Assembly: GCA_965232515.1 (NCBI GenBank)
Contig: CBDDPY010000002.1
Location: 6,912,001-6,976,000, forward strand
Length of the DNA stretch: 64,000 bases
Direction of reading: 5' to 3'
Source of the DNA: Alphaproteobacteria bacterium
GTDB lineage: Bacteria; Pseudomonadota; Alphaproteobacteria; GCA-2731375
Below, piece by piece: positions 46,128-62,836 of the stretch. A program made the translations under genes and the position numbers. How positions within the stretch are numbered: the stretch's first letter is position 1; each line of letters begins with the position of its first letter. Below the pieces are notes generated by a model. That model was not told the origin of the DNA, searched no databases, and was given only the letters and a program-made list of their open reading frames with translations.

Positions 46128-46141
46128 CTCTCCGAGAAATC

Positions 46142-46855: not shown

Positions 46856-46959
46856 TGTCACCTTTCCAGCGGCTGAAGGAGGAGATCGCAGTCACCGACA
46901 CAGCCCTGTGCGACGGGCTGCAAACTTACCCTAAGTGTATTCGCTCGAGATCACGCTAG
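46855..46959 (+). pseudogene. Possible N-terminal stub of an HMG-CoA-lyase-like (DRE-TIM) enzyme
   Basis: TGATG-coupled 34-codon ORF MSPFQRLKEEIAVTDTALCDGLQTYP, similar to the D-x-x-x-RDGLQ motif. Confidence 0.5.
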
Positions 46960-47361
46960 GCGTTCTCGAGGCTATCGTCGGAGCTGAACTCAGGATCGAC
47001 AGAGCTCACCTTTTTCGTGCGCCCTGATTGATTTGCTATCTTAAAACGCAGAACGCATTACAAAGCTCGAAACTGAATCAGCAAAGTAATGAAATTCTCC
47101 CCTGATTGCGAATTGTCGTGGTTTGAGGTGAGCGGTGGGGGGCCGGCGTGGACCAGTTGGTTGTCTTGGCGGCCCCTTCGGATGCCTATGCTCGTCGCAA
47201 TCAGGGAATCGACAGCCACGCAACAGCTGGCAGACTGGCGCTCAACGGCGACTCCGGCCGGATGCGCGTGAAGTCGATCGCAAACATCTCAACGAGCGCA
47301 TGCGTGGAAGGGACGGCGGATTTCGGCGCTGTCATCTGCGTGCGCTTGCGTAGCACGTTCG

Positions 47362-47472
47362 GAGATCCCCAGCATGATGGCCGAGGTCGACGCGCTGGCC
47401 GGACAAAGAATCATTCTGGACTATTTTCTCAAGCCCGTCGCCAAGGTCCGGAAAAAGGCCTTCCGCCAGTAG
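47362..47472 (+). pseudogene. C-terminal fragment of an HlyD-family type I secretion adaptor
   Basis: EIPSMMAEVDALAGQRIILDYFLKPVAKVRKKAFRQ* resembles the PGMxAEVDI..G.R..LDY.LKP...AFRE tail. Confidence 0.65.
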
Positions 47473-47648
47473 GCACTGGTGCCGCGCAGGGATGTGCCTG
47501 CTTCCCGCGGCATCTGCCGTTTGCTCGCTTGCTGCCGCGGTTTCTCCGCTTCGTGCCTTGTGCCGGGTTCGGTCCGACCAACGAAAAGATAGAGATACCA
47601 ATATAGGCCTTTCTCCATCGCCTTGTAATGGTGGGGAAAAAAGACCGG

Positions 47649-47765
47649 TCGATAGCGTTCCTGAGACAGGGCTCCTTCCGCAAGTTCCCGGTTGAACGGA
47701 AGGCCCAGGATGGTGTCTCGCAGCGCTCTGGTTTCCGCCCACGCGTATTCGGTGAACTTGCTCAT
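47649..47765 (-). pseudogene. tenA: TenA (thiaminase II) N-terminal fragment
   Basis: MSKFTEYAW...LPFNRELAEGALSQERYR then similarity is lost; ATGA-coupled to thiD. Confidence 0.72.
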
Positions 47766-48601
47766 GCGGTTTGGCGCTCCGGCAAATGGTCGGGCCACAA
47801 AGCATGGAAGTGATGCACCGGACCGTGGCCGTGACCCACATCGAGATGGCCACTCTCGCGGATGGCGTCGGTAGTGTAGCGCTTGGCCTCTTTAACGGCA
47901 TCTTCAACGGAAGAATGTCGTGGCAGAAGGGCCGCGATGGCGGCCGATAGCGTACAGCCTGTCCCGTGCGTGTTTTTCGTTGCGATACGATTGGCTTTTA
48001 GTTCGATGACGTCTTTCCCGTCAAACAGCAAGTCGGAACTGGTGGTCCCCTCCAGATGCCCGCCCTTGAGCAGAACGTGCGAGGGGCCGAGGTCGTGAAG
48101 GGCGCGCACGGTATCGTGCATGGCGTCAAAGGTCTTTGGTGTGTCTCGTCCGAGCAGGACGCCCGCTTCCGGAAGGTTCGGTGTAACGACCCTGGCGATC
48201 GGCAAAAGTTGATCGCGGACCGTTTCGATCGCCGTATCGTCCAGCAGCCGGTCGCCGCTCTTCGCCACCATCACTGGATCGAGGACGATGTTCGTGGCTT
48301 CATATCGTTGAAGGCGATCAACGATTATCGCGGCGACCTCCGCCGTATGCACCATTCCAATTTTCAAGGCATCGACTCGCACGTCAGAGAAAACGCTATC
48401 GATCTGCGCGGCGACGAAATCCACAGGCACGGCATGGACGAAATCGACGCCGCGCGTGTTCTGCGCAACAAGCGCTGTTATGACTGACATGCCGTAGGCG
48501 CCAAGGGCTGAGAAAGCCTTCAAGTCCGCCTGTATCCCTGCACTGCCGGTGGGATCGGTGCCGGCGATCGTCAGCAAGTTCGGGATTTTCGAAAGGGACA
48601 C
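47762..48601 (-). CDS. thiD: HMP/HMP-P kinase
   Basis: IAGTDPTGSAGIQADLK, DPVMVAKSG, THGTGCTLS. Confidence 0.93.
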   Translation of the reverse strand: MSLSKIPNLLTIAGTDPTGSAGIQADLKAFSALGAYGMSVITALVAQNTRGVDFVHAVPVDFVAAQIDSVFSDVRVDALKIGMVHTAEVAAIIVDRLQRYEATNIVLDPVMVAKSGDRLLDDTAIETVRDQLLPIARVVTPNLPEAGVLLGRDTPKTFDAMHDTVRALHDLGPSHVLLKGGHLEGTTSSDLLFDGKDVIELKANRIATKNTHGTGCTLSAAIAALLPRHSSVEDAVKEAKRYTTDAIRESGHLDVGHGHGPVHHFHALWPDHLPERQTA

Positions 48602-48652
48602 GGTATCTTGTCTCTCAAGTTTGCCTTTGCCGCCGGTGCACAAGCTGTTCGT

Positions 48653-49102
48653 TCACTGGCCTTCGAAATGGAGCACGATCTCGCGTGGCCGAGGCTTTCG
48701 GCGATGCTCGAAGAGAAAGATGCCCTGGTAGCGTCCGAGCAACAGTTCTCCTTCGAAGATGGGGACCGCTAAATTGGTCTGCGTGAGCGCACCCTTGATG
48801 TGGGCGGGCATGTCGTCAGGCCCTTCCGCGTCATGACGGTAGAGCTCGATGTCTTCAGGCACTTGCGCCGCGAAGAAATCTTCCAGATCGCGCAGAACGT
48901 CGAAGTCTTCGTTTTCCTGGATGAGAAGCGACGCCGATGTATGCCGTATAAAGAGCGTCAGCAGCCCGGACGACAGAGAGTTTGCTTCAGCCCAATCCTG
49001 AATGTCCCCGGTGATCTCGTACAGCCCTTGTTTAGGCGTCGTCACGGTATGACGCGCTTGGGCGAATATTTTGAAGTATTGGGGCGATGTGACCGCATCC
49101 AT
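48653..49102 (-). CDS. yjbQ: YjbQ/UPF0047 protein (secondary thiamine-phosphate synthase activity in homologs)
   Basis: HTSASLLIQEN, HDAEGPDDMPAHIK, GRYQGIFLFEHR. Confidence 0.88.
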   Translation of the reverse strand: MDAVTSPQYFKIFAQARHTVTTPKQGLYEITGDIQDWAEANSLSSGLLTLFIRHTSASLLIQENEDFDVLRDLEDFFAAQVPEDIELYRHDAEGPDDMPAHIKGALTQTNLAVPIFEGELLLGRYQGIFLFEHRRKPRPREIVLHFEGQ

Positions 49103-49113
49103 ATCAATCTTCC

Positions 49114-49461
49114 TCAATAGCGGGGCATGTCCGGTTCTATATGGCGCGACCATGCGTCGATCCCGCCGACAAGGTTCCAAGCGTTGTCAAATCCGTTCTT
49201 GCGAAGAAACTCCGTCACCATGGCGCTGCGTATGCCGTGATGGCAGACAACGATGAGCGGGTTCTTGCGGGGCAGCCCCTCGAGTTCGTTTGGAACTTGC
49301 TGCATCGAAATGGTGGCGCTGCCATCAATGATGCACACGGCCAGTTCCTCCGGTTCCCGAATATCGAGCACCAGGTGGGGAGCCCCGTCGTTTCGCATTT
49401 CGGCGAGTTGATGAACGCCGATATCGTGACTTGTTTCCTGCATCTCGTCCGCCCCGCTCAT
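49114..49461 (-). CDS. Single-domain rhodanese
   Basis: LDIREPEE, CHHGIRS, GGIDAW. Confidence 0.88.
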   Translation of the reverse strand: MSGADEMQETSHDIGVHQLAEMRNDGAPHLVLDIREPEELAVCIIDGSATISMQQVPNELEGLPRKNPLIVVCHHGIRSAMVTEFLRKNGFDNAWNLVGGIDAWSRHIEPDMPRY

Positions 49462-49494
49462 GTATAGACACCAAGCGTTGCCGGGGTCGTTCGT

Positions 49495-49743
49495 CTAGTA
49501 ATTGATCGCATCCAGGAACACACAATCCGGCGGATCGGCCTCGCGCGGACCAAGGCGTTCGTCGTATCGGAACAAAGTCGCGCAGTAAGGACAGAGGATC
49601 GTGTCGTCCTTCCCCATGTCGAGATAGATGTGCGGGTGGTCCTGGGGCGCAGAAGCGCCGGCGCACTTAAACTCCTTCGTGCCGATGCGAATCTCCGAAA
49701 CTCCGTGATCGTTCTTGAACTTTGCATAGTTTTCATGGGCCAT
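49495..49743 (-). CDS. zf-CHCC zinc-finger protein (NDUFS6-like)
   Basis: C..DHPHIYL..CPYC. Confidence 0.82.
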   Translation of the reverse strand: MAHENYAKFKNDHGVSEIRIGTKEFKCAGASAPQDHPHIYLDMGKDDTILCPYCATLFRYDERLGPREADPPDCVFLDAINY

Positions 49744-49945
49744 TTCGCCCAGCCAACTCGTTCTCGATGATGCCAACTTCCGTAAACTGATGTTCCAGCG
49801 ACCGGTCGGTCAGCATGCCGCTGTCGATCAGCTTGCGAAGCTCGCCGAGCTTCGTCTCAAGTTCAGCCTTGCTGAACTTCGCCCAAGGATTCGCTTCCTT
49901 TGGCGATAGGCTCGTTTCCGGGCGCACGCACGACCGCTGCGTCAT
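49733..49945 (-). CDS. Small hypothetical protein (start uncertain)
   Basis: Fills the gap in the operon, ATGA-coupled to nfu, amphipathic helical sequence. Confidence 0.5.
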   Translation of the reverse strand: MTQRSCVRPETSLSPKEANPWAKFSKAELETKLGELRKLIDSGMLTDRSLEHQFTEVGIIENELAGRNGP

Positions 49946-50493
49946 ACCGGCCGCACTTCGATGACTTCCGGGACGTAGTGACGAAGCATGTTCTCGATGC
50001 CGGCCTTCAGCGTCGCGGTCGAACTCGGGCATCCAGAACAGGACCCCTGCATGTGCAGGTAGACCACGCCTTCCTCGAAGCCGTGAAACAGTATGTCGCC
50101 GCCATCTTGGGCCACCGCCGGCCGGACGCGCGTATCGAGGAGCTCTTTGATCTGAGCGACGAGTTCGTCGTCCTCATCCGATGCCGCGTGCGCCGAAACC
50201 GCGCCGTCATCGGTGAAGAGTGGCGCGCCGGACGTAAAATGCTCCATGATCAAACCGAGCACTGACGGCTTGAGAACCTGCCACGACTGATCGTCCGTCT
50301 TCGTCACGGTAATGAAGTCGGCGCCGAAGAAGACGCCGTTGACGCCGGCAACCTCGTACAAACGGCCCGCCAATGGCGAAGCCGCAGCATCCTCGCGTGT
50401 CGGAAAGTTGGCGGTGCCATTTTCCATCACGGACTGGCCCGGCAGGAACTTGAGGGTTGCTGGGTTCGGCGTCTCTTCGGTTTGGATGAACAT
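49942..50493 (-). CDS. NifU-family (Nfu) Fe-S carrier
   Basis: MFIQTEETPNPATLKFLPG; VRPAVAQDGGDI; GSCSGCPSS. Confidence 0.93.
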   Translation of the reverse strand: MFIQTEETPNPATLKFLPGQSVMENGTANFPTREDAAASPLAGRLYEVAGVNGVFFGADFITVTKTDDQSWQVLKPSVLGLIMEHFTSGAPLFTDDGAVSAHAASDEDDELVAQIKELLDTRVRPAVAQDGGDILFHGFEEGVVYLHMQGSCSGCPSSTATLKAGIENMLRHYVPEVIEVRPV

Positions 50494-50534
50494 GGTTCAA
50501 CGCTTCTCGTTCGATCGGTTGGTTCGCTTGGGCG

Positions 50535-50932
50535 TCATGCGACGTTCCCCATTCCCGAAAGGTCGGTCACGCTCCAGAAGGCGGTAGCGGCGGCGAACAT
50601 GGCGCCGTGAGATGCCGTCGCGTCCGGGCTCGACGGGTCGTCGTCGAAGCGCCCGAGTTCTTTGGCGATGTCGAAAAAGCCGGACGCCGGCAGCCCGCCC
50701 CGCGCGCGACTGATGACGAGCGCGGCAATGAAGGGATGGTCGTTGGCCGCATCTTCCCGCATCAGCCATTCGAGGGCTTCCGTGACCTGATGATCGTGTT
50801 CGGCGGCTCGAGCTCCAAGGCTTCGGCAAGCGCCTAGTAGTTGATCGGTTCACCATGCACCGCGATCCGTCGAAGGTAAGTCCGGACACGTCCGGCCAGT
50901 GCTTGCGTTGTTGGCACATTGTTTTCCAGCAT
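50535..50932 (-). pseudogene. Disrupted hypothetical protein (nonsense plus frameshift)
   Basis: ATG 50932, TAG at 50836-50834, frame change near 50790, then EALEWLMREDAANDHPFIAALVISRARGGLPASGFF. Confidence 0.65.
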
Positions 50933-50937
50933 GACCG

Positions 50938-51258
50938 TCATGACACGCCCTTTGCGAGATCGAAGAGGCTGAAGGGGTCATTCGCGGGCTTGGTTTCGAG
51001 AACCGGTAATGGGTCCTCGAACAGCCTGCCGTCGGATTCGATCACGACGCGCCAAACCCGCGCCCGATAGCGGAATGTGAGACGGGTCCGACCGGCGTCT
51101 TCGTTTTCACCAGTTTCAGTGACGCTCATAACCAAGCCCTTGGCCATGTTCTCCCTCAGAGCCTCAGTGCTGAGGCCCAGCTTGGGCGCCAGTGCCTCGG
51201 CCTCGACGGTAATCTCGCCGTCATTGACACGGATGGCTGTTGATGAAAGTGGGGTCAT
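50938..51258 (-). CDS. DUF6522-like small protein
   Basis: ETGENEDAGRTRLTFRY..RVVIESDG. Confidence 0.7.
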   Translation of the reverse strand: MTPLSSTAIRVNDGEITVEAEALAPKLGLSTEALRENMAKGLVMSVTETGENEDAGRTRLTFRYRARVWRVVIESDGRLFEDPLPVLETKPANDPFSLFDLAKGVS

Positions 51259-51260
51259 CG

Positions 51261-51854
51261 CTAGGCCGTCCCAACGCGTGGCGGCCCGGCTTTGCCGGAT
51301 TCGAAATTGATGCAGAGCTGCTCCAGCTCGTCGGCCGTAAGAGCCTCCTTCACGAAGCCGCATTCATACGCGTTCATGCCCTCCTGGCAGCAGCCGTCTC
51401 CTGCGAAATGCACGCACGTCTCGCACGTGCCGAAAAGCGGTTTACCCGTCTGCAACGCAACACTGCCAAGCAAACGCTGAAGCACGACGGAAAAACTGCC
51501 GCGGACGCCCGGGGGTAAAGCGTCCGCGGCCCGAACCAGAGCTTCGATGGGGTCATCGTTCAGAAGAGCCCTGGCTTTCTTTGTGAGGTCCAGTCTCACG
51601 CTTCGGCCATCGGTCTTCGATCGGGTCTGTTTCAGATAGCCGTCGGCGACCAAGCCTTTGATGGTTTGAGAGGCGGTGCCCCGCGTTGTGCCGTGAAACG
51701 CCGCAAACGCCGATGGTGTGCGCGAAAAGCGATTGGCCCGCGCGAAATACCTCAATCCGGCCCACTGGACCGGCGTCAAGCCACCCACGAGTCCGTCGCC
51801 CGACGCGATCCGTCCGAGATGAAGAATCAATTCGGCGATAACGCGGCTGTCCAT
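51261..51854 (-). CDS. MarR-family regulator with Cys-rich C-terminal extension
   Basis: LTPVQW..TRGTASQTI..DGRS..LT; tail CETCVHF..CC..EC..LC; AAGGAG RBS. Confidence 0.88.
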   Translation of the reverse strand: MDSRVIAELILHLGRIASGDGLVGGLTPVQWAGLRYFARANRFSRTPSAFAAFHGTTRGTASQTIKGLVADGYLKQTRSKTDGRSVRLDLTKKARALLNDDPIEALVRAADALPPGVRGSFSVVLQRLLGSVALQTGKPLFGTCETCVHFAGDGCCQEGMNAYECGFVKEALTADELEQLCINFESGKAGPPRVGTA

Positions 51855-51895
51855 GTCGCACTCCTTGTCCATGGGGTCGCTCAGGTCATTAGATA

Positions 51896-51968
51896 ATAGC
51901 GATTTCAAACTATATTGACAAGATTATGATTTCGGTTCCATACTAAAATAGTATGGTTTCAAAACTAT
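51896..51968. promoter_or_regulatory. Divergent marR/rrf2 promoter-operator
   Basis: TTGACA (51915) N18 CATACT; perfect IR CCATACTA-AAA-TAGTATGG (51938-51956); repeated TTTCAAA(A)CTAT. Confidence 0.6.
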
Positions 51969-51998
51969 CTAGCCAATAGATGGCGGAGGTAAAGGAAG

Positions 51999-52487
51999 AT
52001 GCGGATCAGCAGCAGCGCCTACATGGGTGTCGAGACACTGGTGCGCTTGGCGGTGCAGAGCGCGGACAAGCCTTGCTCGACGAGAGGGCTCGCCGAGTGG
52101 ATCAATCGGTCCGTGTCATATACGGAAACCCTCATGGCGCAGTTGCGCAAGGCGGGCCTTGTCGTCTCCCGACAGGGGCCAGGCGGCGGCTACGTTCTTG
52201 CCAGGCCGGCACACCGGATCACGGTTGCGGAAATCTTCGAGGCCGTCGACGCGCCATCGGACTTTGCCAACCGTCCGCTCAACGCCGACACGCTCGAAGA
52301 AGAGGACGTTCGCGATCTTCATGGCACGGACCTCCTCTGGGTGGCGCTGAAGAGCTACGTCCTGTTGTTCCTGAACGGTGTTTCGCTCGCCGACCTCACT
52401 CCGGAGACAGACAGTCTGGTCGGCGACGGCACCAACGACAACGTCCCGGTTTATCCCGTGGATATGGATTCGACAATGCAGCACTGA
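51999..52487 (+). CDS. Rrf2-family (IscR-like) regulator
   Basis: SVSYTETLMAQLRKAGLVVSRQGPGGGYVLARP, ITVAEIFEAVD. Confidence 0.9.
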   Translation: MRISSSAYMGVETLVRLAVQSADKPCSTRGLAEWINRSVSYTETLMAQLRKAGLVVSRQGPGGGYVLARPAHRITVAEIFEAVDAPSDFANRPLNADTLEEEDVRDLHGTDLLWVALKSYVLLFLNGVSLADLTPETDSLVGDGTNDNVPVYPVDMDSTMQH

Positions 52488-52551
52488 ACGCCTTCGATCG
52501 CCATTCCGAAGCTGCTGCGAACAACGCGCAGCAACATCATCAGGAGATCTT

Positions 52552-52773
52552 ATGCCGATATCGGAAACCGACCTCGAAAACGCCCTGAAGGAAAAATTCC
52601 CCGACGCGCAAATCGCATGTCGTGACCTTGCCGGCGATCAGGACCATTGGGAGGTCAGCATCGTCGATCCCGTCTTTGAAGGGCGGTCGCGCATTCTGCA
52701 ACACAAGATGGTCCAAGAGGCGGTGGTCGAACACGACATTCACGCGCTCTCGATCAAAACAGCAGCAAAGTGA
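52552..52773 (+). CDS. bolA: BolA-family protein
   Basis: [27 protein letters not shown]; AGGAG RBS. Confidence 0.9.
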
Positions 52774-52784
52774 AGGAGGACTCC

Positions 52785-53120
52785 ATGGGTCAGAATACAG
52801 TTCTCGAGACGATCAAGTCGCAAGTCACCGAAAACGATGTCGTTCTTTACATGAAAGGCACGAAGGAGATGCCGCAGTGCGGGTTTTCATCGGCGGTATC
52901 GAAGCTGCTCACGGAACTCCAACTGCCCTATCTGGCCGTCAACGTGCTTGACAGCCCGGACCTCCGCGAAGGGATCAAGGAATTCACCGACTGGCCGACG
53001 ATCCCTCAGCTCTACGTCAAGGGTGAGTTTGTCGGCGGCTACGACATCGTTCGGGAATCCTACGAGGACGGCGAGCTTGAATACCTTCTGAAAGACAAGG
53101 GCCTGCTTACGCAGGGTTAG
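52785..53120 (+). CDS. grxD: Monothiol glutaredoxin (Grx4)
   Basis: [22 protein letters not shown]. Confidence 0.93.
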
Positions 53121-53131
53121 AGGAAGTCCAT

Positions 53132-53476
53132 ATGCAGACGGCGGCCCTGGCGACAAGGATCAACACACAAGACGCTCATGACGATGGCGTAACGGAGCGG
53201 CGCTCTGACTTGCGCCTTTTGCCAAAGCCAGAAAAACACATCTCAGCGATCCAAGGTCACGTCGTCCACGTTTGCTTCCCGGTGGTTGTTCCCGGTGAAG
53301 ACGGGCGCGTCATTCCGTTCGGTAGATACGAACTTACCGTCTCTCCTCAAAACGGATCTCCGGGCACGACACCGGAAAAGGTGATGTTGGCGAATCTGGA
53401 CAACGGCGCCCGTGTCGCTCTGTCGGTCCTGGAACTAACAGCGATCGCGCGCGATCCGGATGTCGAGATTATCTGA
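53132..53476 (+). CDS. Hypothetical protein
   Basis: GAGG RBS, fills the operon gap; no family recognised. Confidence 0.55.
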
Positions 53477-53477
53477 G

Positions 53478-54257
53478 ATGGTGCAACTTCGCTTACCCGT
53501 CAATTCAAGGATCACCGCCGGACATGTCTGGCCGGGGCCTCATGATTGTATCCGCCCGAAATCTCTCAAGGTGTACCGTTGGAACCCGGACGACGAGCAA
53601 AACCCTCGCCTGGACACATACGAGATTGATCTCGACACCTGCGGTCCGATGGTTCTGGACGCGCTCATCAAGATCAAAAACGAGATTGACCCGACACTGA
53701 CGTTTCGCCGCTCTTGCCGCGAAGGTATCTGCGGTTCCTGTGCGATGAATATCGACGGCACCAATACGCTTGCCTGCACGCAGCCAATCACCGACATCAA
53801 AGGCGACGTGAAGGTCTATCCGCTGCCGCATATGGGCGTCATCAAGGATCTGGTGCCAGATCTGACACACGCCTATGCGCAATACGCGTCAATCGAGCCG
53901 TGGCTCAAGACGGTGACGCCCGAGCCGGAGCGCGAACGTCTTCAAAGTCCGGAGGACCGGGCGAAACTGAACGGGTTGGAAGATTGCATCCTCTGCTTTT
54001 GCTGCACCACAAGCTGTCCGAGCTACTGGTGGAATGGCGACCGCTACCTCGGCCCAGCCGTGCTCTTGCAAGCCTACCGCTGGCTCAGCGACAGCCGCGA
54101 TGAAGCGACCGGCGAACGTCTCGATCAGCTCGAAGACCCGTTCCGGCTCTATCGCTGCCACACGATCATGAACTGCGCGCAGACCTGCCCCAAGGGCCTC
54201 AACCCCGCAAAGGCGATCGCGGAGATCAAGAAACTCATGGTGGAACGCCGGATGTGA
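53478..54257 (+). CDS. sdhB: Succinate dehydrogenase iron-sulfur subunit (orphan)
   Basis: [34 protein letters not shown] all intact. Confidence 0.95.
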
Positions 54258-54415
54258 AGCTGAACGGAAAACCATGCCGATGACAAACCTATTCGTCAGA
54301 TCACTGATCGTTTCCTCGCACTCACACCTGAGCGTCCGGCCAAACCCTTTCGCATCACGCTCATCTCGCAGCTCGTGGAACACGACCGCCGATCCGACCA
54401 AGCAAGCAGCCAGGA

Positions 54416-55429
54416 TTGCAGCCTTTGATTCTAAGCCAGCATTTGGTCCGGTTCCGAGCGCTCCTGCCCGGGCTTCTGGTGAGCGCCACCGTCGCGATTA
54501 CCGCGACGTTTCTTTCGGAGCATTATGGCGCGCCGGTAATGCTGTTCGCGCTCCTGCTCGGGATGGCCTTCAACTTCCTGGCCGACGAACCGCAATGCAG
54601 TGCGGGCGTCACCTTCACATCCAGCGCCGTGCTACGGCTTGGCGTCGCACTCCTGGGCGCCAGGATCACGGCCGACGAGGTGTTGAAACTCGGCTATGGC
54701 CCGCTGCTGCTCACCGTTTGCGGAGTCCTGCTGACCATTGCGTTCGGCATGTTTCTGGCCCGCCGCATGGGTCTGACGCGGGACTTCGGGATACTGACAG
54801 GCGCAGCCGTGGGCATTTGCGGCGCATCGGCCGCGCTTGCTGTTGCGTCAGTGCTGCCGCGTCACAAACACGGGCTGCAGGAACGCGATACGATCTTTGC
54901 CGTTCTTGGCGTGACCGCACTCAGCACGGTCGCGATGATCGTCTATCCGATCATCGTTGTGTCGCTGGATTTCGACGACCTGAAGGCCGGGATGTTCCTT
55001 GGGGCGACGATACACGACGTGGCCCAGGTGGTTGGCGCCGGCTACACGATTTCCGAACCGGCGGGCGAAGCCGCCACGGTCACGAAGCTCCTGCGCGTCG
55101 CGCTTCTGGTTCCCGTCGTAATCGCCATAACTTTGATCCTGTCTCGCGGCCGGCACACTGGCCATGGCAAATGTCCATCCTTTCCACTGTTCCTTTTTGC
55201 TTTCGTTGTCTTCGTCATCTTGAACAGTCTGGGCTTCATTCCGGAGCCGCTGCGCGCCGGAATGGAAGCCGCGTCTCGCTGGGCGCTCGTCGCGGCGATC
55301 GCCGCCCTCGGCATCAAGACCTCGCTCAAGGACCTCGCCGCGGTCGGACCCAAGGCGCTCATCCTGTTGATTGCCGAGACGTTCTGGATCGCAGCTCTGG
55401 CTCTCTCGGTCTTGTTGCTGATCGTTTGA
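54416..55429 (+). CDS. YeiH / putative sulfate exporter family membrane protein
   Basis: LRLGVALLG, ICGASAA, GATIHDVAQVVGAG, TKLLRV. Confidence 0.88.
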   Translation: MQPLILSQHLVRFRALLPGLLVSATVAITATFLSEHYGAPVMLFALLLGMAFNFLADEPQCSAGVTFTSSAVLRLGVALLGARITADEVLKLGYGPLLLTVCGVLLTIAFGMFLARRMGLTRDFGILTGAAVGICGASAALAVASVLPRHKHGLQERDTIFAVLGVTALSTVAMIVYPIIVVSLDFDDLKAGMFLGATIHDVAQVVGAGYTISEPAGEAATVTKLLRVALLVPVVIAITLILSRGRHTGHGKCPSFPLFLFAFVVFVILNSLGFIPEPLRAGMEAASRWALVAAIAALGIKTSLKDLAAVGPKALILLIAETFWIAALALSVLLLIV

Positions 55430-55524
55430 CGTAAACCTCGAAAGGACACCTTGCCGATGATGAACTCGATGACCTCACAGCGCATTCATTCAGGGGCGCT
55501 TCATGCGCGACCGAGAGGCCGTCC

Positions 55525-55854
55525 ATGACCTTCGTCGTCACCGAAGCGTGCATCAAGTGCAAGTACATGGACTGTGTCGAGGTCTGCCCCGTCGATTGCT
55601 TCTACGAAGGCGAGAACATGCTCGTCATCCACCCCGACGAGTGCATCGATTGCGGTGTCTGCGAACCGGAATGCCCGGCGGAAGCCATTCTGCCGGATAC
55701 GGATCAAGGCGCTGACGCATGGCTCCAACTCAATCGTGACTATTCCGACAAATGGCCGAACATAACTCAGAAAGGCGAATCCCCGCCGGACGCAGAGAAG
55801 TATGACGGAATGCCGAACAAGTTCGAAGAGCATTTCAGTTCCAACCCCGGCTAG
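55525..55854 (+). CDS. fdxA: 7Fe ferredoxin
   Basis: [17 protein letters not shown]...[12 protein letters not shown]. Confidence 0.93.
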
Positions 55855-55906
55855 GTGAACAGTGCGAGCAAACTGATAGGAGTCACAGAAATAGGTCTGG
55901 CAAGAA

Positions 55907-56428
55907 ATGAGGCATCACAATCTCATTTCCACGGAAGACACCGTTCTCGTCTTCATCGATTGCCGCGACAAAGCAATCGCTAACGGCGCGCCCTTTGATA
56001 TGCGCGCTATTGCGGACAACTGGGTTGAGCTCGCCACATCGGCCCTTGAATGGCGCGTTCCCATCATCGCAACGATGATGCAGCACGCCGAACTTAACGG
56101 CGCGAGCACGCTAGTGGATCAGATCCCCAGTATCGAAGCGATTGAACGCATAGGCGTAAACCCATGGGACCATGAACCCTTTGCGGAGGCGATTGCCGCG
56201 ACATCAAGACGTCGGCTTGTTCTCGCAGGCAGTTTTACGGAAGGAGCGGTCACGTTTGCCGCGCTAAGCGCTCTTCACGAAGGATACGACACCTACGTCG
56301 CCCATGATGCGTCTATCGGCGCGACCACCTCAGATCACGAAACCGCCGTCGCCCGAATGCGGCAAGCAGGTGCGGTTCCCGTTACATGCCGTCAGCTTCT
56401 CCTCGAATGGGGGCGGAATATTTCCTGA
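55907..56428 (+). CDS. Isochorismatase-fold (YcaC-like) protein lacking the catalytic Cys
   Basis: FIDC, NPWD, AGSFTEGAV, DASIG, RMRQAGA, EW. Confidence 0.75.
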   Translation: MRHHNLISTEDTVLVFIDCRDKAIANGAPFDMRAIADNWVELATSALEWRVPIIATMMQHAELNGASTLVDQIPSIEAIERIGVNPWDHEPFAEAIAATSRRRLVLAGSFTEGAVTFAALSALHEGYDTYVAHDASIGATTSDHETAVARMRQAGAVPVTCRQLLLEWGRNIS

Positions 56429-56518
56429 ATTCGAAAAAGCGGGGGTCGGCGCACAAGCCGGCCATTATTGAACCCTCTATTTACTTGCAAAATTGTCACA
56501 TAAGAAAAGAGCAATCAT

Positions 56519-57202
56519 TTGAAGACGACTTTGTTCATTACATCCTCGGGTACGGAGATCGGCAAGACATTCGTGAGTTCCCTGATTATTCGGCAATTGC
56601 GCAGACAAGGATATGCTGTCGAGGCGCTCAAGCCGGTGATTAGCGGGTTGACCGCTGACGATTTCACCAACAGCGACACAGCTCTCTTGCTTAATGCGCT
56701 TGAGAGACCGGTCACCACTAAAACCATCGAGCAGATGTCACCCTGGCGTTTCAAGGCGGCCCTGTCGCCGGATATGGCAGCCGCCAAGGAAGGTCGTGAA
56801 GTATCGTTCGGCGCCCTTGTCGAATACTGCACGGCCGCGCGAGCAATTGCCGAAGATGTACTGCTTATCGAAGGCGTGGGTGGTGTCATGGTGCCGCTGG
56901 ATCAAAACAACTTGGTGATCGATTGGATCGCGGCTCTTGCGCAACGAACAAACGTGCGTCCCGTTCTCGTGGTCGGCTCTTATCTTGGCACGCTAAGTCA
57001 CACGTTCACCGCAGCCGCCGTCTTGGCTGAACGCGGCGTGCCGCTTGTTGCCGTCATCGTGAGCGAGACTTTAGACAGTACGGTAGAACTATCGGCAACC
57101 GTGGATGCCATGATCCGTTTTCTTCCCGATGTTCCTATTGTTACGCTGCCTCACCTAAGCGCCGATGCTGTAAACGCACCGGATTTGACGTTTTTTTGCT
57201 AG
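56519..57202 (+). CDS. bioD: Dethiobiotin synthase
   Basis: GTEIGKT, KPVISG, LSPDMAA, IEGVGG, YLGTLSHT. Confidence 0.9.
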   Translation: MKTTLFITSSGTEIGKTFVSSLIIRQLRRQGYAVEALKPVISGLTADDFTNSDTALLLNALERPVTTKTIEQMSPWRFKAALSPDMAAAKEGREVSFGALVEYCTAARAIAEDVLLIEGVGGVMVPLDQNNLVIDWIAALAQRTNVRPVLVVGSYLGTLSHTFTAAAVLAERGVPLVAVIVSETLDSTVELSATVDAMIRFLPDVPIVTLPHLSADAVNAPDLTFFC

Positions 57203-57230
57203 ACCGTCCCCGGTTAGGGGGACGGTCTAG
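57199..57230. terminator. 13-bp perfect hairpin between convergent bioD and metE
   Basis: CTAGACCGTCCCC-GGTTAG-GGGGACGGTCTAG; no clear U-tract on either strand. Confidence 0.5.
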
Positions 57231-57236
57231 GAGACA

Positions 57237-59531
57237 TCAGGCGGACCGCGCTCTCAGCTTGCGCGCCGCTTCGACCATGTTGACGAGGGCGGGGCGTACC
57301 TCGTCCCATTTGCGGGTCTTGAGGCCGCAATCCGGATTGACCCAGATCTGATCCGGCGCCAGGCGCTCTTCGGCTTTGGCGAGCAGCGCCGCCATCTCGT
57401 CGACCGGCGGGCAGCGTGGCGCGTGGATGTCGTAGACGCCCGGACCGATCTCGTTCGGGTAACGGTAGTCGGTGAAGGCATCCAGCAGCTCCATTTTCGA
57501 GCGTGCCGTCTCGATGGAGATGACATCGGCGTCGAGCGCGCCGATCGCTTCGATGATGTCGTTGAACTCCGAATAGCACATATGGGTGTGGATCTGGGTC
57601 GCGTCATCCACTCCAGACGAGGCGAGCCGGAAGGATGCGACCGCCCAGTCCAGATAGCGCGCCCAATCGCCGCGCCGCAGCGGCAAACCTTCACGCAGCG
57701 CGGGCTCGTCGATCTGGATAATACCGATGCCGGCGCGCTCCAGATCGGCCACTTCATCGCGCAGCGCAAGGGCGATCTGGCGGCAGGTGTCCTCGCGCGG
57801 CTGGTCGTCGCGCACGAAGGACCATTGGAGCATGGTCACGGGCCCGGTCAGCATGCCTTTCATCGGCTTGTCCGTCAGCGATTGGGCGTAGGCGGACCAC
57901 TCGACGGTCATCGGCGCGGGCCGTGACACGTCGCCGAAGATGATCGGCGGGCGCACGTAGCGCGATCCGTAGCTCTGCACCCAGGCATGCTTGGTGAAGG
58001 CGTAGCCGGCGAGTTGCTCGCCGAAATACTGCACCATGTCGTTGCGCTCGAACTCGCCATGCACCAGCACATCGATGCCGATCTCTTCCTGCCAGCGCAC
58101 CGCCGCTTCGGTCTGGTCGCGCAGAAAGTCCCGATAGTCCGCATCGCCAAGACGGCCCTTGGCATGGCCCGCACGGGCCTTGCGCACGTCCTCAGTTTGA
58201 GGAAACGATCCGATCGTCGTGGTGGGGAAGGCCGGCAACGACAAACGTGCTCGCTGCGCCTGTCGGCGCGCTGTGAAGTCGCCGTGCCTGCGGGTCATGC
58301 CAGGCGTCACCGCTTGCAGCCGGGCCTGGATGGCCTCGTCATGGATCTTCCTCGATGTCGCGCGCGAGGCCACGGCGGCGGCGGACGCCGCAAGTTGGTC
58401 CTTGACCGCGTCCCGGCCCTGGTCGAGCGCCCGGCCAAGGGCGACGATCTCGTCCAGCTTCTGGACGGCGAAGGCGAGCCAGCTTTTCAGATCGGCGTCC
58501 AGATCGGGCTCCAGCTCCAGGTCGATCGGCACGTGGAGCAAGGAGCAGGACGGTCCGATCATGACCCGTTCGGCGCCGCGTTCTTCCATGACGGGTTCGA
58601 TCCGGTCCAGCAGGGCCGGTAGATCGGCACGCCAGATATTGCGGCCGTCGATGGCGCCCAGCGACAGCACAAGTTCGGCCGGCGCCTTGGCCAGCAGGTC
58701 GGCGACCTGGTCGGGTGCTCGCGCCAGATCCACATGCAGGCCGGCGACGGGCAGGGCCAGCGCCGTATCCAGAGCGTCGTCCAGCCCGCCGAAATAGGTC
58801 GTCAGCAGCAGCCTGACGCCGGCGGTCCCGGCCAGCGTCTCATAGGCGCGCTTGAAGGCGCCGCGTGCCGCGTCGTCCAGGTCGAGCACCAGACAGGGCT
58901 CGTCGATCTGCACCCAGTCAGCGCCCTCGGCAGCCAGCCGCCGCAGAAGATCGGTATAGACCGGAAGCAGTCCGGGCAGCAGCGACAGCGGATCCAGCGC
59001 CTCGTCCTTGCTCTTGCCCAGCAGCAGGTAGCTGACCGGGCCCAGCAAGACCGGCCTGGTGTTAAAGCCGAGCGCTTTCGCCTCACGGAACTCGTCGACC
59101 GGCTTGGTCGCCGCGAGCGTGAAGGTCTGACCGCGGGAGAATTCCGGCACCATGTAGTGATAGTTGGTGTCGAACCATTTGGTCATCTCCAGGGCGGGAA
59201 GGTCCCCACCGGCCCGGCCGCGGGTGCCGCGCGCCATGGCGAAATAGGTGTCCAGCGAGGGCGCGCCGCCGGACCAGCCGTACAAATCGGGGATTGCGCC
59301 GACCATGACGCTAGTGTCCAGGACGTGATCGTAAAGCGAGAAGTCATTACTCGGGATATGGGCGATGCCGGCGGCGTGCTGACGCGCCCAGGCCGCGGCT
59401 CGCAATGCGGCCGCGTCGTCAAGCAAGTCTTGCGTGCCAGTCTTGCCGGCCCAATGGCTCTCCAAAGCCTTCTTCAGTTCCCGGCGTGGGCCGATACGAG
59501 GAAAGCCGAGGGAGCTGGTCGTTATAGACAT
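57237..59531 (-). CDS. metE: Cobalamin-independent methionine synthase
   Basis: GFPRIGPRRELK, MTKWFDTNYHY, HTHMCYSE, WVNPDCGLKTR. Confidence 0.97.
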   Translation of the reverse strand: MSITTSSLGFPRIGPRRELKKALESHWAGKTGTQDLLDDAAALRAAAWARQHAAGIAHIPSNDFSLYDHVLDTSVMVGAIPDLYGWSGGAPSLDTYFAMARGTRGRAGGDLPALEMTKWFDTNYHYMVPEFSRGQTFTLAATKPVDEFREAKALGFNTRPVLLGPVSYLLLGKSKDEALDPLSLLPGLLPVYTDLLRRLAAEGADWVQIDEPCLVLDLDDAARGAFKRAYETLAGTAGVRLLLTTYFGGLDDALDTALALPVAGLHVDLARAPDQVADLLAKAPAELVLSLGAIDGRNIWRADLPALLDRIEPVMEERGAERVMIGPSCSLLHVPIDLELEPDLDADLKSWLAFAVQKLDEIVALGRALDQGRDAVKDQLAASAAAVASRATSRKIHDEAIQARLQAVTPGMTRRHGDFTARRQAQRARLSLPAFPTTTIGSFPQTEDVRKARAGHAKGRLGDADYRDFLRDQTEAAVRWQEEIGIDVLVHGEFERNDMVQYFGEQLAGYAFTKHAWVQSYGSRYVRPPIIFGDVSRPAPMTVEWSAYAQSLTDKPMKGMLTGPVTMLQWSFVRDDQPREDTCRQIALALRDEVADLERAGIGIIQIDEPALREGLPLRRGDWARYLDWAVASFRLASSGVDDATQIHTHMCYSEFNDIIEAIGALDADVISIETARSKMELLDAFTDYRYPNEIGPGVYDIHAPRCPPVDEMAALLAKAEERLAPDQIWVNPDCGLKTRKWDEVRPALVNMVEAARKLRARSA

Positions 59532-59796
59532 AAGGGAAACCTTTCACAGTCGCGCGCAACCTAGGCGACGCGTTCGTTAATGTTCGAGAAATGGGACGCC
59601 TGCGGATGTACCGTGCGTGGCCACGGCGGTTCCCGGGCGGACACCCGGCGGACATCACAACGCTGGAAAGGCAACATCATCAGCATACCCCATAGTCGAT
59701 TGGGGTAGAGCCGAGCGGACGCTTGCGGAGAACCGGAAGGCGGAACCTTCCGGTGCATGCGACCCACCGGGACACCCCGCCCGAGGACGTTCACAT

Positions 59797-59995
59797 CTGT
59801 CGCGGCAGGTCTCCTGGCTCGCGGGTCGGTGTGGCTGTCCGGCCTTCCCGACGCGTTCGCACGTCAGTGACCCATATCGACAGCAGCTCGCCGCTTACAG
59901 TTGCGGGGGCAGCTCCGGCTTTGCCGCCCATAGCGGCGCACCGGATTCCCTCTTAGCTTTCGGCCGGTTAGCGGCCGAAAGAACCGTGACAAGAG
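59797..59995 (-). ncRNA. Cobalamin riboswitch upstream of metE
   Basis: Minus strand has AAGAGGGAATCCGGTG, GCCCCCGCAACTGTAA, GGGAAGG and B12 box GAGCCAGGAGACCTGCC; TTGACA-N18-TAAATT just upstream. Confidence 0.93.
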
Positions 59996-60098
59996 TAATT
60001 TAGAGATCGAACACTGACCATGTCAACAGAAATATAAAGATATCCTTATGTTTTGATATCTGATTGCTGGCTGAGGACAAACCCGCCACGTCGGTTGC

Positions 60099-60983
60099 TC
60101 ACGGATTACAGAAGAGACAGTTCTGCGGAGAGGTTTTTTCTAGACCATCGCGACGTGCTCTCTCCTCGAGATGATCGCACACAGCGCATCCGAAGACCTC
60201 GTACCGCACCATCTCCGTCGGCGCGCCACAGAGTTCGCAGGGCAGTCCTTTGACCGTACCCGTCCGACCCCACCCTGGCGCCGAGCAGGACGGACATTGC
60301 GTCGCCAGCCGCCGCGCAAGCTTGAAAGCCAACCGGCGGATGGCGCGCATGCGCGTGGGATTAAGATGGGCGCGCATATCGGGCTCGACCCACGCAACGC
60401 CGTCATCGGAACGAGCAGTTGCCTCGGCCATCGCTGTCTTCAAGTCGTCAGCACTGGTCACGCCTTTCGCGATCGGCTTGCCGGGACCGTTCTCGTTTGT
60501 TCGCACGATCAGCCCATGAGTGGGAAAGCCCACGCGGGGGAGCCATTCGGCGAGTTCGTCAATATTGCGAGCCTCGTAATGGCCGTAGTTAGTGTTCTCG
60601 CAGATGAAGCTCTCAGTCAGGACGAAGCCTCGTTCGTCATCGACGAAAGTTAGGAGTTCGACGCCGGCCGGAATGAAGGGTATGAACGGATGCGGACCGA
60701 AACTACCTTCGCTGGCGATCCCAAAGGACAGCCCAGTAATCTCCATGCCCAACCGCGCCTTCCGTTCGCAGACCTCCAAGGGTGTGCCCTCGCGCGGAAC
60801 CTCGCCCGTAAAGGTCCCCAGGGTATCCGTGTCGAGACCGGACGGTGCCAGCACCTCCAAGCCGAGCGCGAAACGGAAGGGCCGTACGATCGCCTGTTCC
60901 TTCGCATGCTTGGTTGCCAAGCAGGCTATTCGTTCACAATAGACCGTCACGTCGTCTGATTGGTTCGGCCGGCAAACCGCCAC
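60099..60983 (-). CDS. DUF6671-like protein with C-terminal CxxC zinc-ribbon motifs
   Basis: ATKHAKE, DTDTLGTFTGEV, ASEGSFGPHP, DMRAHLNPTRM, four CxxC. Confidence 0.75.
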   Translation of the reverse strand: MAVCRPNQSDDVTVYCERIACLATKHAKEQAIVRPFRFALGLEVLAPSGLDTDTLGTFTGEVPREGTPLEVCERKARLGMEITGLSFGIASEGSFGPHPFIPFIPAGVELLTFVDDERGFVLTESFICENTNYGHYEARNIDELAEWLPRVGFPTHGLIVRTNENGPGKPIAKGVTSADDLKTAMAEATARSDDGVAWVEPDMRAHLNPTRMRAIRRLAFKLARRLATQCPSCSAPGWGRTGTVKGLPCELCGAPTEMVRYEVFGCAVCDHLEERARRDGLEKTSPQNCLFCNP

Positions 60984-62044
60984 GCCAGGGTTTCGCTCGC
61001 GTGGAACGGAACGACGTGAACGTTGTCATCGCCCATCAGCTCGGGCACGTCCTGCGCCTCTCGCCGCAGCGTGACCGTTCCCTCGTTGAGCGGGAGGCCG
61101 TAAAAGCCTGGGCCGAACTCCGATGCGAAAGCCTCCAGCCGGTCGAGGGCGCCTTCCTCTTCGAACGTCTGGGCGTAACTCTCGAGTGCCGTCGGCGCAC
61201 TGAAAATACCGGCGCAGCCGCAGGCGCTTTCCTTTTCATGCTTCTGGTGGGGTGCTGAGTCGGTCCCGAGGAAAAACTTGGGGCTGCCCGATGTCGCCGC
61301 TTTGCGTAGCATCTCTTTGTGATGGCGGCGCTTGGCAACGGGCAGGCAGTAGGCGTGCGGGCGCAGCCCACCTTCGAACATGGCGTTGCGGTCGATCCGC
61401 AGGTGATGCGCCGTAATCGTTGCCGCCAGGTTCGGTCCCGCCGCCTCGGCGAAGCGAACCGAGTCTTCGGTGGTGATATGCTCCAGCACCACCTTGAGGC
61501 CGGGGAAGGCCGCCAGGACCGGTGTCAGAACCTTGTCAAGGAACACGGCCTCCCGGTCGAAGATGTCGATATCCGGCGACACCACTTCGCCATGCACCAA
61601 GAGCGGCATGCCAATGGCCTCCATGCGCTCCAGCACCGGCCAGATCTTGCGCACATCCGTGACGCCATCCGCGGAATTGGTCGTGGCCCCCGCCGGATAG
61701 AGTTTACATGCCGTAAAGACGCCGTCCTTGAAGCCTGTCGCGATCTCTTCTGGATCGATCTCATCGGTGAGGTAAGCCGTCATCAGCGGCGTGAAGCGGC
61801 ATCCTGCGGGCAGCGCATCCAGAATGCGCGTTCGATAAGCCTCGGCCGCGGCGGCCGTCGTCACCGGCGGAACCAGGTTCGGCATCACGATGGCGCGGGC
61901 AAACTGCCGGGCGGTGTAGTTGGCGGCGAAGGCCAACATGGCGCCATCACGGAAATGCACGTGCCAATCGTCCGGCTCGCGCAGTATCAAAACGTCATCA
62001 GTATCGTGGGACGGCTCTTGGCTCCCATTGTCTCGAAGACTCAC
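60947..62044 (-). CDS. pyrC: Dihydroorotase (E. coli-type)
   Basis: PDDWHVHFRDG, KLYPAGATTNS, EHITT, FLGTDSAPH. Confidence 0.95.
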   Translation of the reverse strand: MSLRDNGSQEPSHDTDDVLILREPDDWHVHFRDGAMLAFAANYTARQFARAIVMPNLVPPVTTAAAAEAYRTRILDALPAGCRFTPLMTAYLTDEIDPEEIATGFKDGVFTACKLYPAGATTNSADGVTDVRKIWPVLERMEAIGMPLLVHGEVVSPDIDIFDREAVFLDKVLTPVLAAFPGLKVVLEHITTEDSVRFAEAAGPNLAATITAHHLRIDRNAMFEGGLRPHAYCLPVAKRRHHKEMLRKAATSGSPKFFLGTDSAPHQKHEKESACGCAGIFSAPTALESYAQTFEEEGALDRLEAFASEFGPGFYGLPLNEGTVTLRREAQDVPELMGDDNVHVVPFHASETLAWRFAGRTNQTT

Positions 62045-62836
62045 TTATTTTCCTTATCCCGATACTTGCGGCTCATACAAACACCCTGCACAAAAACGCC
62101 CAAAGACAATGATCGGTCAACCAACGAGTTGCGTGGCACTTTCCACTTTTTGTCCAAGACCTTCATCTGGTCAGCAAGTTTGAAACGTCAATCGATCTCT
62201 CCCCGGTGCGTGATACTTTTTATCGATGCCTTTCATGACGATTTCGCATCTGTCCCTGCCAATCCCCTATAAGTCATGGGGTTCCGGTGCTGAGCCGCTA
62301 GCACAGTGCTTTGGCAGGCCCACCTTTTCTTGCATTTCACGGTCCGATCAGCGTAGATGATTCCGCCCGGCGCAAAATCGTCGGATGGGGACCGCTAACC
62401 CCCTGAAAAGCCAAGGCGGCCGTGTGATCGGCGCGCCCCTAATCTGCTTGCCCATCCGTTCAGCACGGCCGGATGGCGGCGGAATATCCAGGGCCCCGGC
62501 CTATTGCCCAGCGGGAATCCAAGACGCAAGCTACGAAGGACAGGCTGAGCAGTAGCCAGCCGATGGAATCATGTAGAGCTACATCGGCACGACAAACTCG
62601 AGATATTCCTTATGCATGTTATCGGGTATTGGCGGATCAGCGTAGAAAACCGTCGCGGCCAATGTGACGGTACGGCGTATGCAGAGCTTTCTTCGATCCA
62701 AGGTCGACAAAGCGATCGCGCCGGTTAGCTATGAGATAAAGGCGGGTGCTTGACACATCCACGCCCTGACATCCAGGCAGACTAACCAGCTTTCTTCGTG
62801 AGCTGGCGAAACACGGCTGATAGTCGTGGTTCTGCG

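Follow-up and report, generated by a model that had tools for sequence, protein, structure and literature searches.

Gene content of the core module

We analysed a 64-kb stretch (C2:6912001-6976000) of the main chromosome (C2; 7.33 Mb, 65.5% GC) of an alphaproteobacterial genome that is 96% complete; this whole stretch is referred to as the window. The subject of this work is a divergently transcribed set of genes concerned with supplying iron-sulfur (Fe-S) clusters, arranged around genes for a MarR-family and an Rrf2-family regulator (core module, 47.76-55.85 kb), and its relation to the wider 14.4 kb (47.6-62.0 kb) that a first-pass annotation of the DNA had proposed to be a single stress island. 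Gene identities were assigned by Pfam and NCBIfam profile scans, with scores in bits compared with curated cut-offs, and nearly all the genes that had been named were recovered in this way, including those for a YeiH-family protein and a TonB-dependent receptor. The minus strand carries thiD, yjbQ, a rhodanese gene, a zf-CHCC gene, a 71-aa open reading frame (ORF), nfu, a frameshifted small gene, a DUF6522 gene and marR. Opposite to these, the plus strand carries rrf2, bolA, grxD (encoding Grx4), a 114-aa ORF, sdhB, a YeiH-family gene, fdxA, an isochorismatase-family gene and bioD, after which metE, a DUF6671 gene, type II pyrC and the receptor gene follow on the minus strand.

On the minus strand, marR (51261-51854; PF12802, 41.3 bits against a cut-off of 27) encodes 197 aa, its start being placed at 51854 because the homologues, all annotated just as "MarR family", are 197-200 aa long. 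It is followed by the DUF6522 gene (50938-51258; PF20132, 73.5 bits), the frameshifted gene, here called unk130 (50535-50941), and nfu (49942-50493), whose product is an Fe-S carrier with Nfu_N and NifU domains (PF08712 and PF01106). Then come orf71 (49733-49948), a small conserved ORF with no Pfam or NCBIfam match, and genes for an NDUFS6-like zf-CHCC zinc-finger protein (49495-49743; PF10276, 43.7 bits against 27), a single-domain sulfurtransferase of the rhodanese type (49114-49461; PF00581, 60.3 bits) and a YjbQ/UPF0047 protein (48653-49105; TIGR00149, 118.4 bits against 67.75). The distal cargo of this operon is thiD (47762-48643; TIGR00097, 337 bits), which encodes a hydroxymethylpyrimidine (HMP)/HMP-P kinase.

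On the plus strand, rrf2 (51999-52487; PF02082, 93.9 bits against a cut-off of 30) is followed by bolA (52552-52773; PF01722, 35.6 bits) and by grxD (52770-53120), whose monothiol glutaredoxin reaches equivalog level for Grx4 (TIGR00365, 138.2 bits against 117.1). The next ORF, orf114 (53132-53476; 114 aa), had no match in Pfam, NCBIfam or Atlas. It precedes sdhB (53460-54257; NF004616, 376.4 bits against 228), which encodes the Fe-S subunit of succinate dehydrogenase with Cys motifs for 2Fe-2S, 4Fe-4S and 3Fe-4S clusters; as had been noted before, this gene is an orphan, with no sdhC, sdhD or sdhA in the window. The series continues with the gene for the YeiH-family membrane protein (54416-55429; PF03601, 226.5 bits) and fdxA, for an FdxA-type ferredoxin (55525-55854; NF045490, 172.4 bits against 135).

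The unk130 gene, which like the isochorismatase-family gene and the riboswitch described below was absent from the first-pass list, is a broken copy, in two reading frames, of a gene for a conserved winged-helix-like protein of ~120 aa. Two tblastn pieces join at about 50786-50792; a contig of a related strain (run X4) is longer by a single base, which follows 50792, and the window's reading is repeated in a second sample (X3). The protein had no Pfam or NCBIfam match and no PDB sequence match, and its Atlas matches were unnamed clusters only. A fold identity was sought and set aside: Foldseek returned nothing at E<=0.001, and the VIA matches had Z scores of 5-6, which is below a trustworthy level; they were to winged-helix domains of a generic kind and included several O6-alkylguanine transferases. 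A complex prediction for MarR with unk130 ended in "no answer" (score 0.00) and counts neither way.

Second copies in the same chromosome

By tblastn of each product against the whole genome, chromosomal paralogues were found for nfu, grxD, bolA, fdxA, sdhB, thiD, yjbQ, the rhodanese gene, rrf2 and marR, in agreement with the idea that these are extra copies of existing genes. Most of them belong to a syntenic and more compact module, copy B, which lies 3.56 Mb away on the same chromosome (C2:3397552-3401818) in the order yjbQ-rhodanese-zfCHCC-orf71-nfu-unk130-marR, opposite rrf2-grxD-fdxA, and in which unk130 is intact. Identities between copy B and the window range from 57 to 85% (yjbQ 74%, rhodanese 71%, zf-CHCC 77%, orf71 57%, nfu 85%, marR 74%, rrf2 72%, grxD 61%, fdxA 83%). 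The zf-CHCC gene has these two genomic copies only, each within a module and away from the nuo genes.

Further copies stand outside both modules. A third nfu lies at 4.54 Mb (C2:4542013; 71% identity to the window Nfu), a third fdxA at 5.57 Mb (76%), another bolA-grxD pair at 0.47 Mb and another sdhB at 5.09 Mb (78%), directly 3' of sdhA (C2:5091187); two further thiD-like genes are present. The main suf operon, at 0.264 Mb, adjoins a separate Rrf2 gene whose product has three Cys.

A second full-length sdhA is also present, as a solitary gene at C2:2113208-2114968 (L098, 7181-8971; 896.6 bits, over the cut-off; 71% identity to the operon copy). It directly follows a gene for an HxlR-type regulator (L098, 6719-7168), with no sdhB, sdhC or sdhD homologue nearby, so that the genome has an orphan sdhA besides an orphan sdhB.

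A MarR regulator with a four-cysteine domain

The window MarR belongs to its family by winged helix-turn-helix profile and by fold, and at 197 aa it departs from the compact form of ~140-150 aa. In an AlphaFold2 model (mean predicted local distance difference test score, pLDDT, 77) the MarR fold reaches to about residue 136 and is followed by a poorly defined tail. Since the residues from about 140 form an extra domain, we regard the protein as a MarR-family member with an added module. This C-terminal domain, of ~55 aa, carries four Cys (C144, C147, C165, C181), a C-x2-C pair and two further residues, which are invariant in 31 diverse MarR sequences from alpha-, beta- and gammaproteobacteria. 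Foldseek with the model gave 114 PDB matches at E<=0.001; those listed were almost all MarR-family or winged-helix proteins, with AdcR at the top, and solved MarRs align over about 130-150 columns only. NCBIfam models at E<=0.001 gave weak matches to FabT, LdtR and BilQ, and no SufR model. The cysteine domain may hold an Fe-S cluster, or may be otherwise thiol- or metal-reactive.

The Rrf2 partner is a clear member of its own family (TIGR00738, 87.8 bits against a cut-off of 73.3, in addition to PF02082), yet it scores well below the IscR (73.5 bits against 207.55) and NsrR (20.2 against 182) models. Two other Rrf2 proteins of the host have the three cluster Cys; at these positions none of 20 module-linked sequences has a Cys, and the module-linked proteins share a conserved non-Cys motif of their own. 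The window Rrf2 has a single Cys, so that of the "Cys-rich MarR/Rrf2 pair" described in the first-pass annotation the divergent arrangement and the Cys-rich MarR held, but not the Cys-rich Rrf2.

The module recurs in other bacteria

To see which genes accompany this MarR elsewhere, we scanned one genome per species. At least 564 stretches encode a relative (tblastn, E<=1e-3), of which the best 80 were examined, and 80 metagenome loci (28 of them at least 7 kb long) formed a second sample, giving 160 loci in total; individual loci are cited by number (L017 and so on). At the protein level, 1372 clusters match at E<=1e-10. Neighbours were counted by tblastn with at least half of the query covered.

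Among the 80 genome loci, the commonest neighbour was unk130 (26 loci), followed by Grx4 (25), A-type carriers and Nfu (22 each), rhodanese (19), Rrf2 (18, and 15/80 in the metagenomes), SufB (14), zf-CHCC (12), MoaA (11), orf71 and FdxA (10 each) and SufS (9). Less frequent were NuoI (7), DUF6522 and SerA-like proteins (6 each), YjbQ and SdhB (5 each), NuoB (4), ThiD, orf114 and Mrp/NUBPL (3 each) and BolA (1). Neither metE, pyrC, bioD and yeiH nor the isochorismatase and DUF6671 genes occurred at any of these loci. The metagenome loci displayed the same neighbour set, with yeiH additionally in three and pyrC in one. DUF6522 followed marR in 6/80 genome and 19/80 metagenome loci, orf71 was paired with zf-CHCC in 10/80 and 7/80, and marR was divergent from sufB, sufC, sufD or sufS in 14/80 and 16/80; it also stands beside suf operons in beta- and gammaproteobacteria. 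The theme of the neighbourhood is thus Suf, the carriers Nfu, Grx4/BolA, A-type and Mrp, and the Fe-S proteins FdxA, MoaA, SdhB, NuoB and NuoI.

Several loci resemble the window closely. L127 has sdhB-orf114-grxD-bolA-rrf2 opposite marR-DUF6522-unk130-nfu, and in L122 the order rrf2-sdhB-yeiH-fdxA is found, with the last three 92-95% identical to the window and yeiH (93%) between sdhB and fdxA. In L121, marR is directly divergent from yeiH-fdxA (yeiH 87%), and pyrC (85% identity) stands in the marR operon after rhodanese, in the place that thiD has in the window; thiD itself keeps its position in L017 and L120. Wherever orf114 accompanies a module-linked sdhB (L022, L025, L127, L184), it lies immediately 5' of it. 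NuoB directly adjoins NuoI in L035, L073 and L074, whereas the spacing in the host nuo operon is 7.4 kb, and in L141 NuoB and NuoI follow marR about 400 bp apart.

The orphan NuoB-NuoI genes span 1925-3926 in L073, 11084-12141 in L035, 4344-5238 in L074 and 3308-4656 in L141; in L073 the pair immediately follows an orphan SdhB and has two operator sites ahead of it. In Eilatimonas milleporae (L021, 10140-11402), MarR-DUF6522 lies beside a HipA-type kinase, with no Fe-S carrier gene within 8 kb.

The assembly outlined in the first-pass annotation therefore recurs in part: MarR with Fe-S carriers, Rrf2, DUF6522 and SdhB is found again, while metE was present at 0/160 loci and pyrC at 1/160, and Zn enzymes are not a recurrent component of the module. 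The "spare parts" notion fares likewise, in that orphan Fe-S subunits (SdhB, NuoB, NuoI) recur and metE, bioD, the isochorismatase and DUF6671 do not. The single poisoning stressor that had been proposed found no counterpart; the neighbours speak for Fe-S cluster supply and nothing points to one named poison. A literature search that left subscription journals and supplements outside its scope yielded no paper describing a MarR-type regulator of Fe-S or suf genes, DUF6522 or sets of orphan SdhB, NuoB and NuoI.

A conserved operator-like motif follows MarR

Three 19-bp operator-like sites lie in the marR-rrf2 spacer at 51894-51912, 51927-51945 and 51949-51967. A position weight matrix (PWM) seeded from these sites by coordinate converged on a 19-bp pseudo-palindrome and scored them at 29.4, 19.3 and 28.2 bits. 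Promoter-like hexamers at 51915-51944 (+) and 51921-51893 (-) stand back to back for rrf2 and marR and are overlain by the sites, and the whole spacer is nearly identical between the window and copy B.

Across the 80 genome loci, 145 sites of at least 16 bits were present in the 21.4 kb upstream of marR, compared with 23 in the other 903 kb. A site was still present in 57 of the 58 loci without an rrf2 neighbour, which shows that the motif follows MarR. The 23 sites away from marR lie in other intergenic places of these loci. Ten of the ORFs flanking them were sampled and assigned by Pfam; they included Mrp/NUBPL, NuoB, an A-type carrier and a Grx-carrier-rhodanese fusion, the rest being three SerA-like proteins (one short, with the catalytic domain only), a phosphotransferase and two without a family. 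In the host genome, sites of at least 17 bits were confined to the two divergent marR-rrf2 spacers and one position at C2:7009599; within the window, the PWM scan gave no operator ahead of sdhB, yeiH, fdxA, bioD, metE or pyrC.

The outlier at C2:7009599 (23.9 bits) lies just 5' of an AlpA-like ORF in a transfer-gene region (C2:7008646-7013065; L097, 8646-13065), whose ORFs, named by eye, resemble a DUF2285-type regulator, an AlpA-like helix-turn-helix protein, a TraF-type signal peptidase and a 644-aa relaxase.

Evidence for horizontal acquisition of the window copy

The GC content of the core (58.5%) falls within the lowest 2% of same-size windows of the genome, and copy B is at 66.6%. GC at third codon positions (GC3) is 0.60-0.78 for the window genes, 0.77-0.91 for copy B and 0.89-0.91 for the host sdhAB. 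Low GC is not confined to the core but runs for ~190 kb (about 6.885 to 7.075 Mb), starting at an rRNA operon (6.88 Mb), and takes in the whole 64-kb window; tyrosine recombinases lie inside this region at 7.032 and 7.069 Mb. When island borders were sought, the tRNA-Met end had no repeat between 6.9 and 7.1 Mb.

Phylogenetic trees were built for SdhB (24 rows) and MarR (81 rows). The host SdhB at 5.09 Mb pairs with that of a same-genus genome (100/95), whereas the window SdhB pairs with the module-linked SdhB of Aurantimonas and of an alphaproteobacterial metagenome-assembled genome (MAG) (98/90). The window MarR falls in a starred five-row set (SH-like approximate likelihood ratio test, SH-aLRT, 98) with L017, L018, L019 and L021, whose hosts are Tepidamorphus, Eilatimonas and an alphaproteobacterial MAG. 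Copy B stands outside this set, so the two copies do not stem from a recent duplication within the genome. Both window proteins thus group with module-linked genes of other orders, and the trees are incongruent with the host as the first-pass annotation had supposed. Among related genomes, the four-Cys MarR was present in 7 of the 31 searched (the window's own included). Of 18 family members, 4 had it, all in distant versions, and a search of the same-genus genome (81% complete) did not find it. DNA synteny with five relatives was limited to single conserved genes, scattered over different contigs.

Two loci each were found in four further genomes (L018/L019, L020/L027, L024/L036, L031/L035), and two marR genes occur within one locus in L024 and L026. 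The presence of several copies per genome, together with foreign composition, indicates that the module moves between lineages. An ordinary native housekeeping cluster that merely resembles an island would sit comfortably with the location on the main chromosome and with the failure to find flanking repeats or an adjacent integrase; it accords poorly with the two or three genomic copies of most genes, the bottom-2% GC, the foreign positions of SdhB and MarR in the trees and the patchy distribution of the MarR just described, and we consider it highly improbable. What lies in the core is a second copy, gained by horizontal transfer, of a widespread though unstudied gene module.

A proposed MarR-controlled Fe-S backup system

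Since the neighbours of the four-Cys MarR are Suf proteins, carriers, sulfur-transfer proteins and Fe-S proteins, we read the core as a putative Fe-S homeostasis regulon under MarR. The best explanation of the whole, which we regard as fairly probable, is a pair of MarR-controlled divergent Fe-S backup operons. According to this model, a MarR-type repressor with a four-Cys domain would bind the 19-bp operators covering the back-to-back promoters of marR-DUF6522-(unk130)-nfu-orf71-zfCHCC-rhodanese-yjbQ-thiD and of rrf2-bolA-grxD-orf114-sdhB-yeiH-fdxA. When clusters are scarce or damaged the repressor would leave the DNA, and the derepressed cell would make extra Nfu, Grx4/BolA, sulfurtransferase and ferredoxin, as well as fresh SdhB that may serve as a replacement part for succinate dehydrogenase. 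Horizontal transfer would have brought in the window copy of this system, within the large low-GC region.

A different account of the regulators is that the four Cys bind structural zinc or form disulfides, with the MarR sensing an oxidant or a small ligand in the manner of OhrR, or that Rrf2 is the true Fe-S-linked regulator, acting through a protein partner. A 2024 review describes oxidation-sensing and Zn-sensing kinds of MarR and gives the Zn sensors as the only characterised metalloregulatory members (PMC11672702). The first two invariant Cys of the window MarR do form a C-x2-C pair (C144, C147), and Rrf2 is kept in 18/80 and 15/80 loci with its own conserved motif. Pairs of the C-x2-C kind are typical of zinc sites. 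Against this, by far the most neighbours are genes for Fe-S assembly or Fe-S carriers, with suf operons among them, a pattern known from the cluster-sensing regulators IscR and SufR, and the operator motif tracks MarR even where Rrf2 is missing. We therefore judge a zinc, disulfide or Rrf2-based explanation to be unlikely.

Comparison with known systems bears on the model of MarR-controlled backup operons in several ways. What is known of how Fe-S cluster supply is controlled comes mainly from IscR, SufR and RirA, and IscR targets include suf, A-type carriers and Nfu-type carriers. The module resembles the IscR regulon in that genes for Fe-S biogenesis and carriers are accompanied by a regulator, probably autoregulated, and palindromic operators overlie the promoters; it differs in that the operator tracks MarR and not Rrf2, the module Rrf2 being below the IscR cut-off and without the three cluster Cys. 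SufR of cyanobacteria and actinobacteria is a repressor encoded beside sufBCDS whose C-terminal Cys hold an Fe-S cluster (see also PMC6034842). Its placement and C-terminal Cys set are matched by the MarR, which however belongs to another DNA-binding family and whose neighbourhood regulon extends to respiratory-complex subunits. With AdcR/ZitR and OhrR the window MarR shares the winged-helix dimer fold, but its ~55-aa four-Cys tail has no counterpart in solved MarRs. On these grounds the core may represent an undescribed MarR-type Fe-S homeostasis regulon that works like those of IscR and SufR and lies outside both families. If this is true, a MarR would for the first time be linked to the sensing of Fe-S status; suf control in beta- and gammaproteobacteria was assigned to the four-Cys MarR in no paper that we found.

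The orphan subunits raise the question of whether Fe-S subunits of respiratory complexes are renewed apart from the rest of the complex. Escherichia coli swaps fumarase or aconitase isozymes under stress, and the arrangement proposed here is similar in placing extra copies of vulnerable Fe-S enzymes under a stress regulator, although it involves single Fe-S subunits unaccompanied by the other members of their complexes (SdhB here, NuoB and NuoI elsewhere). The zf-CHCC protein shares its domain with NDUFS6, a complex I accessory subunit of mitochondria and alphaproteobacteria; unlike NDUFS6, it is encoded within an Fe-S carrier operon under MarR, in two copies away from the nuo genes. A review describes NDUFS6 as a zinc-binding protein that stabilises the complex I Fe-S clusters lying close to it, and one that may originally have been a factor for Fe-S assembly (PMC8762328). 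It is conceivable, and we put it forward as a tentative extension, that the module is a widespread, mobile and undescribed regulon whose MarR bears a sensor domain of its own for Fe-S or thiol status and that couples stress-time Fe-S assembly to the exchange of SdhB, NuoB, NuoI and NDUFS6-like subunits in damaged complexes I and II; repair would then consist of swapping the subunit, not of rebuilding its cluster in place.

A number of observations weigh against a functional Fe-S regulon of this kind. The PWM had only the three window sites as its seed, but its refinement used the very upstream regions in which sites were then counted, and a reversed-genome control gave 6 sites of at least 16 bits, the real genome 10. 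The neighbour counts are lower bounds, since short contigs are numerous among the 160 loci, and related MAGs among them are not independent. AlphaFold2 confidence in the MarR tail is low (block means of 33-74 from residue 131, and below 50 at 156-160 and 184-197), neither sequence nor Foldseek searches found a solved relative of the tail, and any assignment of what the cysteine domain binds is putative. The model leaves the role of the Cys-less Rrf2 unexplained. The window copy may be partly decayed, given that its commonest partner gene, unk130, is frameshifted here; no flanking repeats were found around 46-58.5 kb and no mobile-element boundary around the core. Two polyA RNA runs gave 0 reads on 44001-64000, which counts neither for nor against co-induction.

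Genes outside the core

Beyond fdxA, the plus strand continues with the isochorismatase-family gene (55907-56428; GC3 0.60) and bioD (56519-57202; 122 bits against 83.3; GC3 0.60). The statement that bioD stands without bioABF held both locally and across the genome, in which no bioA, bioB or bioF exceeded its curated cut-off (best scores 335.4 against 405, 41.4 against 225 and 321.3 against 426.45, respectively); a search of 12 family relatives gave no bioD. On the minus strand, metE (57237-59531), identified by Pfam and NCBIfam, is preceded by a cobalamin riboswitch (RF00174; 59787-60003, minus strand; 129.5 bits against 31.5, model positions 1-189 of 189), which makes the ORF at 59617-60003 spurious. 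Further on lie the DUF6671 gene (60099-60983), which has no genomic paralogue, and type II pyrC (60947-62044; TIGR00856, 444 bits), both on the minus strand. The last 37 bp of pyrC are shared with the DUF6671 gene, whose product ends with several C-x2-C pairs.

These genes formed part of the earlier proposal that the whole of 47.6-62.0 kb, including metE, pyrC, bioD and the isochorismatase gene, is one co-regulated island replacing metallo- and thiol-enzymes poisoned by one stressor. Some of the evidence is in its favour: metE, bioD and type II pyrC are atypical for the lineage, occurring in 1, 3 and 4, respectively, of 21 relatives' genomes when that of the window is counted in, and share a GC3 below that of the host; the genes from rrf2 to bioD lie on one strand with gaps of 52-158 bp and a terminator count not above that of shuffles; pyrC stands within the marR operon of L121; and bioD lacks its partners throughout the genome. 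The genes bioD, metE, type II pyrC and yeiH are single-copy, with two type I dihydroorotase-like genes above the cut-off elsewhere in the genome. However, metE, bioD, the isochorismatase gene and the DUF6671 gene were each present at 0/160 MarR loci by tblastn, and none of these four, nor pyrC, has an operator ahead of it. A riboswitch of its own and a metH elsewhere in the genome (C2:6346741) make metE an ordinary arrangement. Given that GC is low throughout the window and the ~190 kb around it, where many unrelated catabolic genes also lie, co-location needs no shared function. A single island is thus quite improbable, and the 14.4 kb are not established as one unit. With its riboswitch, metE is a neighbour outside the module. 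Type II pyrC and the DUF6671 gene are accessory genes whose link to it is doubtful, and for pyrC and yeiH the link is limited to the loci given above.

Other features of the window

The TonB-dependent receptor gene (62837-63985, minus strand) was identified by Pfam and NCBIfam. No tenA was found, although it had been named among the thiamine genes; the 906 bp at 46856-47761 (GC 0.58) comprise two ORFs without a Pfam match, and neither this segment nor 62045-62836 (792 bp, GC 0.54) contains a recognisable gene or Rfam match. The remainder of the window, 1-46127, is a catabolic and transport stretch that includes at least four amidase genes (13288, 20885, 22458, 44763), seven further amidase paralogues being present elsewhere on the chromosome, two of these inside the window. 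The same stretch also encodes two SBP_bac_5 binding proteins, a TRAP DctP protein, a molybdopterin oxidoreductase, a Cys/Met pyridoxal phosphate (PLP) enzyme and an AtuA-like protein.

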